Assembly (NCBI GenBank): GCA_963675495.1 | Contig: OY776215.1 | Coordinates: forward strand, 1,792,001 to 1,856,000 | Direction of reading: 5' to 3' | DNA length: 64,000 nt | Source: an uncultured Methanolobus sp. | GTDB lineage: Archaea > Halobacteriota > Methanosarcinia > Methanosarcinales > Methanosarcinaceae | Shown: one piece after another, positions 34,424 through 41,553 of the stretch | Position numbering within the stretch: the stretch's first letter is position 1 | Layout: each line of letters starts with the position of its first letter | The notes under the pieces: generated by a model | Databases searched by the model: none | What the model saw: only the letters and a program-made list of their open reading frames with translations | Told to the model about the DNA's origin: nothing | Position numbers and translations under genes: made by a program

Positions 34424-35965
34424 TTATTCCATACTCCAGAGTTTCTTCTTTTCAAGAAGTATGTTGATTGCTGTGATGAGTGCGTCCACAGATGCCGTGG
34501 CAATGTCTGCACTTGCTGATTGCGCACTGACCACCCGGCCATCTTCGTCTTCTACAGAGATCGTTACTACTGCCAGAGCATCGCTTCCGCCTGTAATTGC
34601 TTCGAGGCTGAAATCACGTACTTTGACCTTGGTGTATCCCCCGATCATCTGTTCAACTGCATTTAGGGCAGCATCTATTGGTCCCACGCCATAATTAGAG
34701 GCAACAGCTTCCTCATCGCCAATCTTTGCTCTGACTACAGCAGTTGGTGTCGTAAGATTACCTGTCATCACCGAGAATTCTTTTAGGATTATGGTCTCGT
34801 TTCCGAGGTTCCTTCCAAGGACGGCAGATGCAACAGCATGAAGGTCTGCATCGCATATGCGTTTGCCTTTGTTAGCTATGTCCTTGATCCTGATAAGTAT
34901 CTCGTCGAGTTGTTCTTCGGTGGTTTCGACACCCATATCTTCCAGTGACTTCTTGACAGCATGCTTACCTGCATGTTTTCCTATTACTATGCGGCGCTTG
35001 TGACCTACCATTTCAGGGGTCATTATGCCGGGTTCAAAAGTATCGGATTTCTCAAGTACTCCGTGGGTGTGTATGCCGGATTCATGGGCGAATGCATTAT
35101 CACCGACGATCGGGGTATTTGCGGGCATGTGTATGCCAGTGTAATTCTCGACCATCTTGGCGGTTTCAAGCAAGTACTCTGTCTTGATATTTGTCTTTGC
35201 TCCGTATATGGATTGCAGACACATCACTACTTCAGCGAGATTTGCATTGCCTGCACGTTCTCCAAGGCCATTTACGGTTACCTGTATCTGGCTGGCACCG
35301 GCTTCTACTGCCATAAGACTGTTTGCAACGGCAATTCCAAAGTCATTGTGACAATGGACGTCAATTGGTATGTTTACTTCGTTGTTGATGTTTTTCACAA
35401 GCTGGTACATTGAGGAAGGTGCCATTATGCCTACGGTGTCTGGTACGTTTATTATGTCGCATCCTGCTTCTTCTACTGCTTTGTATACTTCTATCAGGTA
35501 ATCAAGGTCGGTTCTGGTAGCATCCATGGCTGAGAACATGCATTTTGTTCCATGGTCCTTGATGTATTCAACGGCATTTACTGCCATTGCGACGACTTCT
35601 TCCTTGCTCTTCTTAATAGTATGTATTCTCTGGATGTCGGAGGTTGATACAAATGTGTGTATCATGTCAACATTACAATCTATGCAGGCGTCCAGATCTT
35701 TTGTAAGGACGCGGGCAAGACCACAGACATCGAGACTCAGGTCTTCGTTAGCTATGGCTCTTACATTTTGCCTTTCGCCATCCGAGGAGACTGGGAAACC
35801 AGCTTCGAGCACATCAACACCAAGTTTGTCCAGTTGCCTGGCAATCTTGAGTTTTTGCTCGTTAGTTAGTGATACGCCGGGTGTTTGTTCACCGTCGCGC
35901 AGTGTCGTGTCAAAAATAGTCTTGTGTGTGTTTATTAGCGGTTTATCGCTGTAAAAAGCGATCCC
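34424..35965 (-). CDS. 2-isopropylmalate synthase / (R)-citramalate synthase family with C-terminal allosteric domain; start unresolved
   Basis: The frame is open from 35965 (after TGA 35968-35966) and reads ...[19 protein letters not shown] upstream of the ORF-track start. Also [27 protein letters not shown]. No ATG/GTG/TTG precedes the DTTLRDGEQ motif in this frame. Confidence 0.9.
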
Positions 35966-35996
35966 TCAGTTGTGCGGTTGAATTCATATTAATCAT
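35943..35996 (-). CDS. Short leader ORF ([17 protein letters not shown]) overlapping the synthase frame
   Basis: ATGs at 35996 and 35987, stop TAA at 35945-35943. Offset by one nucleotide from the synthase frame and lies just downstream of a TATA box. Confidence 0.55.
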
Positions 35997-36014
35997 TCCG
36001 GCTTGTAGTCTATG

Positions 36015-36022
36015 TTATAAAA
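36015..36022 (-). promoter_or_regulatory. TATA box for the leader ORF/synthase transcript
   Basis: TTTTATAA on the minus strand about 28 nt upstream of ATG 35987, consistent with a near-leaderless mRNA. Confidence 0.55.
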
Positions 36023-36082
36023 GACTTCCGTATAATTCTCACTTCCTATTGTCATGCGTTAAGGTGTAATAACTTACTCCTC

Positions 36083-36268
36083 CGCAACCTTTTTATATTA
36101 GCCTTGACTTGTAGGGGTGCTCTCACTGAGCCCAATGATGCGGCCAACGCATCAGGAAAATATGCTCTGTGGGAACAGATCGATGAAGTACTAATTTCAT
36201 TTCATCAGGCAGGTGTTACAAAGGTTCCTTCTTTGTCTTCGAATCTCTTGATTCGGAAGGTATATATA
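36083..36268 (+). promoter_or_regulatory. Tandem rRNA operon promoters
   Basis: cgcaacctTTTTATATT (36083-36099) and cggaaggTATATATA (36254-36268), BRE/TATA-like elements upstream of 16S. Confidence 0.5.
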
Positions 36269-36367
36269 GGATGGTGACCTTTGAAGGAGTCCGCGTGAAT
36301 GCGCGAAAACACTTACAATCACCGCCTTTTATTAAGTGGAGGCAAGAGTTCTTTCTTGTCTGACGTT

Positions 36368-36402
36368 GGATTTGGCAGTTCGATTAATTCTGACCGGTAG
36401 TG
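36368..36402 (+). other. 5' strand of the pre-16S bulge-helix-bulge processing stem
   Basis: ggatttggcagtt-cgat-taa-ttctgaccggtagtg pairs with 38035-38070 (cactaaccggtcagaa-atcg-aaa-aactgtcagatcc). Confidence 0.75.
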
Positions 36403-36532
36403 TACAATATACTACCATATAAGGAATTAATCAACTAATGTGCAAAGTAAAGAAATTCTCTAGTGAGAGTTCTTTCCTAAAAATTCCTTAAATGACTTCC
36501 AAAATGCATTAAACTTTTGTGTGAGATCAACA

Positions 36533-38007
<1,475 letters not shown>

Positions 38008-38111
38008 AAGCAAGATGGACACAAAGTCCATCACCACTAACCGGTCAGAAATCGAAAAACTGTCAGATCCGAGAAAAATTACATGGATTCACTGTAAAAG
38101 GGGTCCAAGAG

Positions 38112-38184
38112 GGGCTTGTAGATCAGTTGGAAGATCGCCGCCTTTGCAAGGCGGAGGCCTTGGGTTCGAATCCCAACAAGTCCA
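38112..38184 (+). tRNA. tRNA-Ala(TGC)
   Basis: Acceptor stem GGGCTTG/CAAGTCC, anticodon arm CCGCC-TTTGCAA-GGCGG, T-loop TTCGAAT. Confidence 0.95.
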
Positions 38185-38315
38185 TTATTAGTGCACCTGA
38201 AGAGTAATTTCTTCGGGGAAGGATGAAGTGGCTGAAGCAACGACAGCTGCAATGAGATCGTGTATATGCATGCATATATCAGACGCTCACTGGACAAAGT
38301 GAGATGGACTCTGGT

Positions 38316-41226
<2,911 letters not shown>

Positions 41227-41330
41227 GTCCGTCTTGCTTTGTCCAGGCGAAATCTGATATGTGCATGTTTAATATACGCAATCTTATGGTAAAGTATAAA
41301 TTCAATGGATTCAATCATAAATCGCTCATT

Positions 41331-41402
41331 GCCAAGGTGGCGGAGCGGCTACGCAATCGCCTGCAGAGCGATTCCATTCCGGTTCGAATCCGGACCTTGG
41401 CT
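41331..41402 (+). tRNA. tRNA-Cys(GCA)
   Basis: Acceptor stem GCCAAGG/CCTTGGC, anticodon arm ATCGC-CTGCAGA-GCGAT, T-arm TCCGG-TTCGAAT-CCGGA. TATA-like aagtataaa about 30 nt upstream. Confidence 0.95.
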
Positions 41403-41428
41403 TTACCATTTACAATTCATCATGAGAG

Positions 41429-41553
41429 AGATTGGCGGCCATAGCGGCGGGGCAATTCCTGTACCCATCCCGAACACAGAAGATAAGCCTGCCAGCGTTC
41501 CTTACTGTACTGAAGTATGAGAGTCTTCGGGAACTCTGGATCGCTGCCAACTC
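41429..41553 (+). rRNA. rrf: 5S ribosomal RNA
   Basis: TGGCGGCCATAGCGG...CCCATCCCGAACAC...GCTGCCAA with terminal helix. Confidence 0.95.

Follow-up and report, generated by a model that had tools for sequence, protein, structure and literature searches.

We found that leuA, the gene for 2-isopropylmalate synthase, has no start codon of its own in the genome of an uncultured Methanolobus sp. The synthase frame is overlapped at its 5′ end by a short leader ORF in the -1 frame relation. On balance we consider it probable, by a modest measure, that the two frames are joined by a programmed +1 frameshift at UUU-UUA-C, which, aided by an upstream GAGGGAUC element, would raise enzyme synthesis when Leu-tRNA is scarce. 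All coordinates are given in the window, by which we mean the whole 64,000-nucleotide stretch of contig OY776215.1 that was analysed (positions 1,792,001 to 1,856,000).

The synthase reading frame

On the minus strand the synthase frame is bounded at its 5′ side by TGA (35968-35966), is open from 35965 and ends at 34424; the codons following the TGA are GGG ATC GCT TTT (35956-54) TAC (35953-51). The preliminary description had claimed that this TGA closes the frame with no usable start before the DTTLRDGEQ motif, the first one, GTG 35812, being located 3′ of the motif. A start scan detected zero ATG, GTG or TTG codons in this frame between the TGA and the motif, and the position of the GTG was confirmed from the minus-strand sequence and the ORF calls. 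A protein initiated at the GTG would be devoid of DTTLRDGEQ, which we take to be the catalytic motif of the synthase family. Database gene models of 462-469 aa begin at or near this codon, while the models of some close relatives begin at an ATA (Table 1). By inspection of the minus-strand sequence, no Shine-Dalgarno-like sequence precedes this ATA, which is replaced by CTA in one Methanolobus genome (L021).

The product of the frame, P0001, scored 738.5 bits against NCBIfam NF002085 (cut-off 517), a profile that does not discriminate between LeuA and CimA, as the citramalate synthase (CimA) paralogue also passes it with 619.4 bits. Homologues of P0001 carry PF22617, PF00682 and PF08502, and its close homologues are named 2-isopropylmalate synthase in NCBI and UniRef. 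By profile and domains P0001 falls in the 2-isopropylmalate synthase (LeuA) family, with 2-oxoisovalerate rather than pyruvate as the predicted substrate. This choice of LeuA over CimA is based on the database names and on identities to the characterized MJ1195 and MJ1392 (PMC8305020, in the part available). A search of 14 named control genomes gave no loci, thus the characterized M. jannaschii enzymes were outside the direct comparison.

Table 1. Features of the leuA locus, in window coordinates
Feature	Positions	Strand	Remarks
2-Isopropylmalate synthase frame P0001	34424..35965	-	513 codons open; post-shift reading would be from 35956
First canonical in-frame start, GTG	35810..35812	-	sole called ORF of the synthase frame is 462 aa
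DTTLRDGEQ codons	35885..35911	-	5′ of first canonical in-frame start
ATA codon	35933..35935	-	where the 503-aa RefSeq-type models of close relatives begin
Leader ORF, 14 codons and stop	35943..35987	-	ATG 35987-35985 to TAA 35945-43
Putative hairpin AUCGCU-UUUUAC-AGCGAU	35945..35962	-	shift site in loop; weakly supported
Proposed shift site U-UUU-UAC	35951..35957	-	0 frame UUU (P) UUA (A, Leu); +1 frame UUU UAC (Phe-Tyr)
GAGGGAUC element	35960..35967	-	last base 2 nt before slip codon
TATA-like box TTTTATAA	36015..36022	-	~20-28 nt 5′ of the two leader ATGs

The leader

The sequence of the leader was as earlier described: a short ORF with a TTT-TTA overlap follows a TATA-like box and begins either at the ATG given in Table 1 or at ATG 35996-35994. 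It ends with the codons CTG AGG GAT CGC TTT (35957-55) TTA (35954-52) CAG CGA TAA. In relatives a TATA-like box is situated at a comparable distance. Given the TATA-to-ATG spacing and the BRE/TATA-to-TSS distance of 19-22 nt reported for Methanolobus psychrophilus in the available part of PMC5378194, the leuA mRNA is predicted to have a very short 5′ UTR or none, with the TSS placed by TATA spacing.

We considered 29 typical leuA-type loci picked by protein homology only. In 26 of them the synthase frame has no canonical start, and in 28 an ATG-started leader is present in the same frame relation; the comparison with orthologues proposed in the preliminary description thus returned an out-of-frame ATG leader next to a start-less frame, not a continuous ORF. 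The leaders of relatives end in ...RD[RC][FLVI]-Leu. The leader stop is three codons from the Leu codon (two codons between) in 28 of the 29 loci, and it follows the Leu codon directly in three leuA-type sequences (L117, L241 and L244).

The candidate hairpin around the shift site is present in the centroid fold (z = -1.2 for the 76-nt region). RNAalifold with 16 Methanosarcinaceae sequences kept only three of its pairs, one of which covaries (CG in 8 sequences, AU in 4, UA in 3, UG in 1, broken in 0). A scan of positions 35700-36500 detected no terminator-like sites; a search against Rfam gave no match at the shift site, its matches in the window being rRNAs and tRNAs only.

Conservation of the two-frame layout

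The pattern AGGGAT-N25-55-DTTLRDGEQ was found in 256 of the 284 genomes of order Methanosarcinales (163 of 166 when only high-quality genomes are counted) and in 105 of 401 genomes sampled from phylum Halobacteriota. A looser pattern, GATCG-NTT-NTN, matched 162 of the 401 phylum genomes. Reversed-pattern controls produced no matches in any of the three scans; the layout of motif plus synthase far exceeds what chance would give.

AGG GAT is read in the frame of the leader ATG, 0 to 7 codons from it (8 in the cimA-type leader L037), and this length varies among lineages by whole codons only. On the other side, ten different spacings between the motif and DTT occur (28, 31, 34, 37, 40, 43, 46, 49, 52 and 55 nt), all congruent to 1 modulo 3; indels on either side of the shift site are multiples of three. 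Synonymous changes are seen as well, at CGN when read in the leader frame and at TAY when read in the synthase frame. Of 122 distinct sequences, 111 have the -1 relation of leader to synthase; the remaining 11 differ only in the position of AGGGAT. Judged by these patterns of variation, leader and synthase look like two coding frames that meet at a single point.

Among 18 Methanolobus genomes a 27-nt block around the site is invariant except for one position, while downstream of it the third position is variable in 88% of codons. Among relatives, conservation of the site and of the frame relation goes beyond coding needs.

Codons at the proposed shift site and the upstream element

In all 67 leuA-type sequences the codon at the putative P site is NUU, which on a +1 slip could re-pair on UUY; in this window the re-pairing would be UUU to UUU, so that a +1 slip is allowed. 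The 0-frame codon at the A site is a Leu codon in the same 67 of 67 sequences (TTA in 54, CTA in 6, CTT in 6 and CTC in 1). The Leu identity is kept through these four codons, while the synthase-frame residue varies (Y, L, F, S). The suggestion that a tRNA slips by +1 from TTT before TTA, made in the preliminary description, draws support from the constancy of NUU-Leu and of the frame relation. The looser phylum pattern also permitted Val, Phe and Met at the A site; in all 150 matches displayed, counted by eye, Leu or Ile was present there.

Of the Leu codons in 1059 long ORFs of this genome, 10% are TTA and 6.7% CTA. UUA, with a frequency of 8.7 per 1000 codons, is moderately rare rather than extreme, and it is one of the two rarest Leu codons of the genome. 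There is one gene for tRNA-Leu(UAA) and one for tRNA-Leu(UAG).

The GAGGGAUC element is partly complementary to the 3′ end of 16S rRNA, which in the window reads GGAUCACCUCCU; AGGGAU ends 3 nt before the slip codon. AGG GAT is present in every typical locus with no synonymous alternatives, in a genome where AGG accounts for 29% of Arg codons and GAT for 67% of Asp codons. In ordinary genes of this genome AGGGAT plus 4 nt precedes ATG or TTG starts; the spacing at leuA is the normal initiation distance. A histogram of AGGGAT-to-start spacings was uninformative, with in-ORF periodicity, while GGAGG, GAGGT and GGTGA gave peaks as expected. We infer from the constancy of the element and its complementarity to rRNA that GAGGGAUC may serve as a frameshift stimulator.

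The citramalate synthase paralogue and exceptional lineages

The paralogous gene for citramalate synthase (cimA) is also without a start and has an equivalent leader; relatives of this paralogue (L002) are named (R)-citramalate synthase. The A-site codon in cimA-type leaders is an Ile codon in 39 of 44 sequences (ATT in 37 and ATC in 2), thus either leader carries codons for the end product of its pathway. The idea of leucine sensing, put forward in the preliminary description for leuA alone, gains support from the Ile codon at the equivalent position of the cimA leader. In Methanolobus cimA the slip would be from AUU to UUA, with poor re-pairing.

It is conceivable, with a likelihood that we would put somewhat short of even, that these leaders are ancient single-codon sensors distributed across the phylum, the first enzyme of leucine synthesis being made only by ribosomes that slip at a Leu codon and CimA, the first enzyme of the pyruvate route to isoleucine, only by those that slip at an Ile codon. 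This extension would cover Methanosarcinales, Methanotrichales-like, Methanomicrobiales-like and haloarchaeal families, which have in common a D-[RC]-[FLV] leader and a GAUCG element. The leader may predate the split of LeuA and CimA.

Some lineages depart from the layout. Methanosarcina keeps the leader but has an in-frame ATG 8 codons past the site, and 14 of the 284 order genomes have ATG/GTG-CGA-GGG. In the L030 genome the start is ordinary and the motif is missing; its genus gave only one match per genome in the order scan. As some lineages keep the leader beside a canonical start, the shift would not be required in every lineage, and the leader may have a further mode of action. In ten Methanoperedens cimA loci and in one leuA locus (L080) AGGGAT is displaced by one base; in at least eight of these cimA loci neither alternative frame offers the leader a canonical start. 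One locus, L062, has neither motif nor start. The displaced-motif loci and L062 are not explained by the frameshift model.

Proposed mechanism

The proposed sequence of events is as follows. A ribosome translating the leader would arrive at the site with peptidyl-tRNA-Phe on UUU (35957-55) and with UUA (35954-52), a Leu codon, awaiting decoding in the A site. From this state two paths would be available. Either UUA is decoded, and translation terminates at the UAA three codons away, or the tRNA slips by +1 to the overlapping UUU (35956-54), UAC becomes the next codon and the ribosome enters the synthase frame. The GAGGGAUC element probably pairs with the 3′ end of 16S rRNA, holding or straining the ribosome at the site. 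A shortage of charged tRNA-Leu would lengthen the pause, since UUA has a single tRNA-Leu(UAA) gene and belongs to the two rarest Leu codons; a larger share of ribosomes would then shift, and more of the first leucine-specific enzyme would be made.

Alternative explanations

Among the alternatives the one that fares best, while in our estimate unlikely, is direct initiation in the synthase frame at a non-canonical start, such as AUC 35962-60, AUA 35935-33 or another AUH or CUG codon, with the leader being an ordinary regulatory uORF or irrelevant. NCBI models of close relatives do begin at the ATA of Table 1, and NCBI cimA models begin at ATT or ATC inside AGGGATY (492 aa, M[VI]LFENVRFLDTT). 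Depending on lineage AGGGAU is followed by C, U, A or G, always giving AUN, and where this base is G, in at least three genomes (including L245 and L246), an in-frame ATG results. The synthase-frame residues GI[AVGI] look conservative, and an in-frame CTG is among the options considered for Haloferax volcanii HVO_1510 in the accessible part of PMC8305020. Still, such initiation would leave without explanation the fixed -1 relation of an ATG leader that has its own Shine-Dalgarno sequence or leaderless promoter, the variation of leader length by whole codons, and the junction codon for Leu in leuA or Ile in cimA with its synonymous changes. By inspection, the bases after AGGGAU follow the order C >> U > A, G, which fits pairing with the GAUC of the rRNA and reverses the order of start-codon strength. 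The AUC abuts GGG and has no ribosome-binding site 5′ of it; the substitution in L021 speaks against the AUA, and in the variants shifted by one base the AUU is outside the synthase frame. Besides, a stall at the Leu codon would place the ribosome over the AUC and lower expression upon starvation, the wrong direction.

A +1 frameshift could instead occur at AGG-G (35966-35963), with tRNA-Arg(CCU) moving from AGG to GGG and the product reading ...QLR-IAFYSDK..., the Leu codon being uninvolved. We consider this improbable. AGGGAU is the most invariant element of the locus, re-pairing from AGG to GGG is feasible at all three positions if a G-U pair is allowed, tRNA-Arg(CCU) has a single gene, and the synthase-frame residues GI[AV] are conservative. 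Against such a slip, in L080 and L082-L090, where AGGGAT is located one base further upstream, the frame that it would enter stops after F-L/F-I, while the F-L/F-I codons keep the -1 relation to the synthase. Families f8, f14 and f18 lack AGGG yet retain D-[RC]-[FLV]-L/I. The persistence of Leu through TTA, CTA, CTT and CTC, with a variable residue in the synthase frame, also points away from a junction at AGG-G.

Termination-reinitiation, in which the leader is translated to its UAA and ribosomes restart nearby at a weak codon with no frameshift, appears very improbable. The conserved position of the leader stop in 28 of the 29 typical loci would agree with it, and the leader of Methanosarcina stops a few bases past the in-frame ATG, a layout of the coupling type. 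Yet coupling does not need a fixed frame, and here the -1 relation is nearly constant; the synthase frame is open and conserved (GI.FY) already 5′ of the leader stop, and the stop follows the Leu codon directly in L117, L241 and L244. A stall upon starvation would, moreover, cut reinitiation, again the wrong regulatory direction.

The remaining alternative, a homopolymer sequencing or assembly error, a recent pseudogene or RNA polymerase slippage on the T5 run, any of which could be suspected as removal of one T makes the ORF continuous, is scarcely credible and was rejected: the contigs of all four runs have no indel, 17 of 18 other Methanolobus genomes and hundreds of further genomes show the identical arrangement of frames, the homopolymer is not conserved and no terminator-like site was found in 35700-36500. 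The check over the A5 run of the plus strand (35953-35957) covered positions 35700-36150, where no letters are inserted or deleted in the contigs of any of the four runs, including a 43.8-kb contig of depth 52 from the independent metagenome run X5; being contigs, these carry neither transcript 5′ ends nor strand, and rare variants as well as minor RNA-level variants are invisible in them. In those 17 genomes the open length of the synthase frame is 513 codons exactly. The run is T5, T4C, CT4, GTTC or CTTCTT depending on the family; given this variation a homopolymer error is excluded, and slippage during transcription is unlikely; the T4-to-T5 error raised in the preliminary description is contradicted by the runs and relatives alike.

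Relation to known systems

A known relative in logic of the proposed +1 frameshift is bacterial prfB (release factor 2), with an autoregulatory +1 frameshift at CUU-UGA-C and an upstream Shine-Dalgarno-like stimulator. The two cases share a short 0-frame ORF before a main ORF in the +1 frame, NUU at the P site that can re-pair on UUY, an rRNA-complementary element few bases upstream, and an A-site codon that, if decoded slowly at leuA as at prfB, would report the supply of a factor that the pathway provides. They differ in that the A site at leuA holds a sense Leu codon and not a stop, so that charged tRNA rather than release factor would be sensed, and in that the element at leuA is at normal initiation distance, whereas prfB is driven by a too-short one. 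Also, the leuA case is archaeal, and its product is a biosynthetic enzyme.

Bacterial leu/ilv attenuation relies on a leader peptide with rare codons for the end product, and on ribosome stalling as the signal. The leuA locus likewise has a tiny leader ORF, with a moderately rare codon for its own end product, before a biosynthetic gene, and stalling would again be the signal; however, the regulatory codon is single instead of a run, no terminator/antiterminator was found here, and the output would be a change of frame, not of transcription. With no terminator-like sites and only a weak 6-bp hairpin, leuA would resemble attenuation in logic and would not be a member of the family. Eukaryotic +1 frameshifts at hungry codons include the polyamine-sensing antizyme and yeast Ty1 (CUU-AGG-C). 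In these a slow A-site codon promotes a +1 shift and expression is tuned to the level of a metabolite or tRNA, as proposed for leuA, though they are eukaryotic and use other stimulators. To our knowledge, neither antizyme nor Ty1 senses the codon of an amino acid whose synthesis it controls.

Start-codon problems such as those anticipated in the preliminary description have been reported for a haloarchaeal orthologue set. The available part of the 2021 account by Pfeiffer and Dyall-Smith (PMC8305020) speculates on ribosomal slippage from an out-of-frame ATG and on leucine dependence for HVO_1510 (Haloferax volcanii leuA2), and mentions proteomic peptides located 5′ of the first alternative start, which count as indirect evidence for a trans-frame product. 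By the table of that account HVO_1510 is 47% identical to the characterized MJ1195 LeuA; a usable canonical start is absent in several of its orthologues, which is described as an open issue in a study of 16 haloarchaeal genomes. HVO_1510 belongs to the same enzyme family as Methanolobus leuA and has the same start-codon problem. The part of PMC8305020 available names no site, junction peptide, leader motif, cimA/Ile parallel or wider distribution, nor does it contain the methanogen cases and the phylum-wide scans.

Saccharolobus solfataricus fucA1 is a cellular archaeal gene expressed by programmed -1 frameshifting (PMC1616953). From the accessible portions of PMC1616953 and PMC8211752, it is similar to leuA as a cellular archaeal gene relying on programmed frameshifting and different in the -1 direction, in joining two long ORFs and in having no link to amino-acid supply. 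In the available text of a 2021 frameshifting review (PMC8211752) there is no cellular +1 archaeal case, and the words 'isopropylmalate' and 'leucine' are absent. LeuA, CimA or their frameshifting are not mentioned in the available parts of PMC11456600, PMC10117724, PMC3711429, PMC5378194 and PMC8211752. Our literature search on leader peptides, frameshifting and LeuA/CimA returned no frameshift sensor at a Leu codon and no classical archaeal attenuation.

Implications

Little is known about how archaea adjust amino-acid biosynthesis to supply. If the proposed mechanism holds, leuA would be the first case of a cellular programmed +1 frameshift in archaea, and a rare one in any domain of a 'hungry' frameshift at a sense codon sensing the product of its own pathway. 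If, further, the phylum-wide reading were true, these leaders would be an archaeal counterpart of bacterial attenuation operating by translation alone. As to annotation, hundreds of genomes of methanogens and haloarchaea have leuA and cimA models that are truncated, have arbitrary non-canonical starts or are at risk of being called pseudogenes; auxotrophy for leucine or isoleucine may for this reason be scored in error when metabolism is reconstructed. A direct test is possible in Methanosarcina and Haloferax, for which genetic tools exist and ribosome profiling has been published (PMC11456600 and PMC10117724, in the parts available).

Other occurrences of the motif

A pattern scan of the whole collection returned at least 120 stretches, a number that is no measure of global distribution; it was diluted by bacterial chance matches with ordinary Shine-Dalgarno sequences and ATG starts. 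Within the present genome (G000), a scan for AGGGAT with a long +1 ORF and a short 0-frame ORF produced 12 candidates. No broader regulon was found in this genome, leuA and cimA being the only genes that join AGGGAT to a truly start-less long +1 ORF. Nine of the 12 candidates have ordinary starts, mostly few bases 3′ of the motif. One more, at genome position 2210321 (minus strand), has no start in its first 60 codons; by inspection, its translation resembles a Csl4-type protein of the exosome, the ordinary start of which would be located further 3′.

The leuA locus

Re-reading of the minus strand reproduced exactly the leader, the closed synthase frame and the late GTG of the preliminary description. 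In the 0 frame the leader codons are ATG ATT AAT ATG AAT TCA ACC GCA CAA CTG AGG GAT CGC TTT TTA CAG CGA TAA, and the synthase frame begins TGA GGG ATC GCT TTT TAC AGC GAT AAA. Its product, P0001, is a 2-isopropylmalate synthase (NCBIfam NF002085, 738.5 bits versus a cut-off of 517); the names given to close homologues assign the window to Methanolobus. A divergent rRNA operon (36533-41552, plus strand) neighbours the leuA promoter, across an intergenic region of only ∼530 nt.

The layout resembles, at the level of sequence, two coding frames connected by a +1 shift, with a slip codon (NUU) in the P site and a sensor codon in the A site. The leucine-sensing frameshift proposed earlier was consistent with all comparative tests run, those on reads, relatives and the sensor codon. 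We consider it probable that some +1 frameshift is required for leuA expression in this genome; the full model, with the shift at UUU-UUA-C tuned by tRNA-Leu supply, is only slightly favoured.

Features of the leuA locus and of related loci
Feature	Location	Strand	Remark
Leader	ATG 35996 or ATG 35987 to TAA 35945-43	minus	read from the sequence
Synthase frame P0001	from TGA 35968-66 down to 34424	minus	513 codons open; one base on from leader frame
GTG	35812	minus	first ATG/GTG/TTG of synthase frame, downstream of DTTLRDGEQ
16S rRNA	36533-38007	+	operon divergent from leuA
tRNA-Ala	38112-38184	+	same rRNA operon
23S rRNA	38306-41232	+	same rRNA operon
tRNA-Cys	41331-41402	+	same rRNA operon
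5S rRNA	41431-41552	+	same rRNA operon
Citramalate synthase paralogue	G000:C1:698639-700127; L002:1474-2952	+	493-codon open frame; outside the window
One-base-shifted motif variants	L082-L092 (Methanoperedens cimA); L080 (leuA of G212)		AGGGAT one base further from TTT-ATT-TAA or TTT-TTA

Conservation of the leader

The suggestion that relatives would carry an out-of-frame ATG leader was borne out. Selection by protein homology alone yielded 31 leuA-type genes of the order, and 29 of them share the layout; these have a Leu codon after the NUU codon (29/29), an ATG leader (28/29), a leader stop as the third codon after Leu (28/29) and no canonical start in the synthase frame (26/29). The layout is absent from L030, which has an ordinary in-frame ATG, and from L062, which lacks both the motif and a start.

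Within the order, a strict pattern (AGGGAT joined to codons of DTTLRDGEQ) was present in 256 of 284 genomes (163 of the 166 high-quality ones), mostly twice per genome; in a phylum-wide sample it was present in 105 of 401. The reversed pattern matched none in either set. In families lacking AGGGAT a variant motif takes its place in the same arrangement, the leaders ending in AWDRFL, TDRFI, ADRVL or AYCLL. The looser pattern GATCG-NTT-NTN matched 162 of the 401 phylum genomes (controls, 0), including 12/12 in the sister family of the class, 22/28 in family f18 and 14/25 in a haloarchaeal-sized family. Typical leaders also occur in named Methanoregulaceae and Methanomicrobiales genome records.

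The proposed sensor codon

Of 122 distinct fetched motif-bearing sequences, 111 had the typical register. All 67 long-spacer (leuA-type) sequences have a 0-frame Leu codon after NUU (TTA 54, CTA 6, CTT 6, CTC 1) and 39 of the 44 short-spacer ones, which are the paralogue L002 and its relatives, have Ile (ATT 37, ATC 2); as kin sequences are not independent, these counts speak of maintenance, not of many separate origins. Two short-spacer sequences have Leu; one of them, L125, is leuA-type by its N-terminus. Opposite the sensor codon the synthase frame encodes different residues (Y, L, F, S), the 0-frame residue being constantly Leu. By eye, all 150 looser-pattern matches listed have Leu or Ile there, in a pattern that also permitted Val, Phe and Met. 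TTA (10%) and CTA (6.7%) are the two rarest Leu codons in 1059 long ORFs of the genome, which has one gene each for tRNA-Leu(UAA), tRNA-Leu(UAG), tRNA-Phe(GAA) and tRNA-Arg(CCU).

The junction and the AGGGAT element

AGG GAT always shares the frame of the leader ATG (0 to 7 codons between, 8 in one cimA-type leader), and the motif-to-DTT distance takes ten values (28, 31, 34, 37, 40, 43, 46, 49, 52 and 55 nt), each 1 mod 3; thus, indels on either side of the junction keep different frames. Variation is synonymous in the leader frame at the CGN ahead of the slip codon (CGC, CGT, CGG, CGA) and in the synthase frame at the TAY past it. Within Methanolobus the 27-nt block AACTGAGGGATCGCTTTTTAC[A/G]GCGAT has one variable position, while variation downstream affects 88% of third codon positions. 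In some families a dedicated Shine-Dalgarno sequence (GGAGG or GAGGT) stands 6-8 nt ahead of the leader ATG; in others, including the window, a TATA-like box lies ∼20-28 nt ahead of it.

AGG and GAT show no synonymous replacement in typical loci, though the genome uses other codons too. Eleven sequences (one leuA, ten Methanoperedens cimA) have the motif displaced upstream by one base, with the F-L or F-I codons still -1 to the synthase frame. This argues, on comparative grounds, that AGGGAT works as RNA rather than as the peptide R-D, and that the shift site would be the NUU-Leu/Ile codons rather than AGG-G. The 16S rRNA of the window ends GGAUCACCUCCU; GAGG and GAUC in GAGGGAUC can each pair with this end if one rRNA base is bulged out. 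In ordinary genes of the genome AGGGAT is followed by 4 nt and a start codon, and standard motifs peak at the matching distance. By analogy with the prfB stimulator, we infer that AGGGAT may be a ribosome anchor; the upstream position is alike, but the leuA element sits at normal initiation spacing and is not strained.

Exceptions and alternative explanations

Methanosarcina leuA (L093, L094, L240) retains the leader, motif and UUU-UUA, and has an in-frame ATG eight codons past the shift site; its longer leader (MDVNTERRDRFLHRIHAE) terminates a few bases downstream of this ATG. This layout looks like termination-reinitiation coupling, which may be a second route to the enzyme. Fourteen of the order's 284 genomes combine an in-frame ATG/GTG-CGA-GGG with a retained leader ATG; the motif is missing from L030, whose start is ordinary and whose genus has only one strict-pattern match per genome. 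Not every lineage therefore needs the shift, and the leader may serve another purpose as well. At least 8 of 10 shifted Methanoperedens cimA loci lack a canonical leader start in either alternative frame, and the leader ATG of L085 sits in a frame requiring a -1 or double +1 shift.

Translation of leuA from a non-canonical start is rather unlikely. Public models of both enzymes (P0002-P0241) do start at ATA, ATT or ATC in part; their N-termini are inconsistent, many (462-482 aa) beginning inside or after the catalytic motif, with occasional in-frame MRGIVFY forms. In the leuA-type L062 (G023, from a family of the same order) a GAGGAG Shine-Dalgarno-like sequence precedes ATA GTA ATC in frame.

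The T4-to-T5 assembly or sequencing error once offered as an alternative is ruled out by contigs of four public runs free of indels over 35700-36150 (at contig level, where minor variants could remain), by an open frame of exactly 513 codons in the best match of 17 of 18 other Methanolobus genomes, and by a T-run that is not conserved (T5 in Methanolobus; T4C, CT4 or GTTC in other families of the order; CTTCTT further out). One of the four, an independent metagenome run, gave a 43.8-kb contig (depth 52) with three substitutions in total over the same interval, none listed at the shift site.

Contigs of run X4 break and overlap beside the shift site (35935-35989), as pieces 35751-35963, 35935-35988, 35959-35989 and 35960-36110 with depths of 422 to 2988; the other three runs span it unbroken. 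Branching of the assembly graph, at transcript ends or at a minor variant, could produce such breaks; contigs do not distinguish the two sources.

Earlier reports

We found no literature on frameshifting of these enzymes in methanogens. The consulted portion of a 2021 review of archaeal recoding (PMC8211752) covers the fucA1 -1 case, viral cases and a suggested magnesium chelatase case, and does not contain the words isopropylmalate or leucine; in the consulted main text of a genome-wide frameshift survey from 2013 the enzyme is not mentioned. The expectation of start-codon problems in orthologues was met by section 3.2(f) of Pfeiffer and Dyall-Smith 2021 (PMC8305020), which describes major ones in the HVO_1510 set, with peptides detected upstream of Met-93, and names as options an in-frame CTG or, with ribosomal slippage, an ATG out of frame. 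Slippage and a dependence on leucine have thus been printed as a haloarchaeal speculation; the shift site, the leader motif, the cimA isoleucine counterpart and the spread through methanogen orders were not found in print.

The cimA paralogue

By database names, relatives of L002 are (R)-citramalate synthases and those of P0001 2-isopropylmalate synthases. In the part of PMC8305020 consulted, the two haloarchaeal proteins show corresponding identities to the characterised enzymes MJ1195 (LeuA) and MJ1392 (CimA), and disruption of the CimA-like gene is reported to cause isoleucine auxotrophy. The paralogue has no canonical in-frame start and bears the same AGGGAT leader, in which Ile codons (ATT ATT) replace the Leu of leuA; its counterparts elsewhere in the order and outside it are alike. 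In this genome the 0 frame of the paralogue is GTG AGG GAT TGT ATT ATT CGA and the synthase frame TGA GGG ATT GTA TTA TTC. Haloarchaeal cimA-type genes keep the rare UUA, preserving UUU-AUU. In Methanolobus cimA the P-site codon is AUU, whose re-pairing on UUA would be poor; the shift may occur at the second AUU instead, the A site then holding a stop or CGA codon.

The presumed 5′ UTR of Methanolobus cimA contains a conserved stem-loop with a CUGC...GCAG core, ∼12-15 nt ahead of the leader (L002:1440-1465 and the corresponding positions of L043-L057); one of its pairs covaries (CG in 7, UA in 5, broken in 3).
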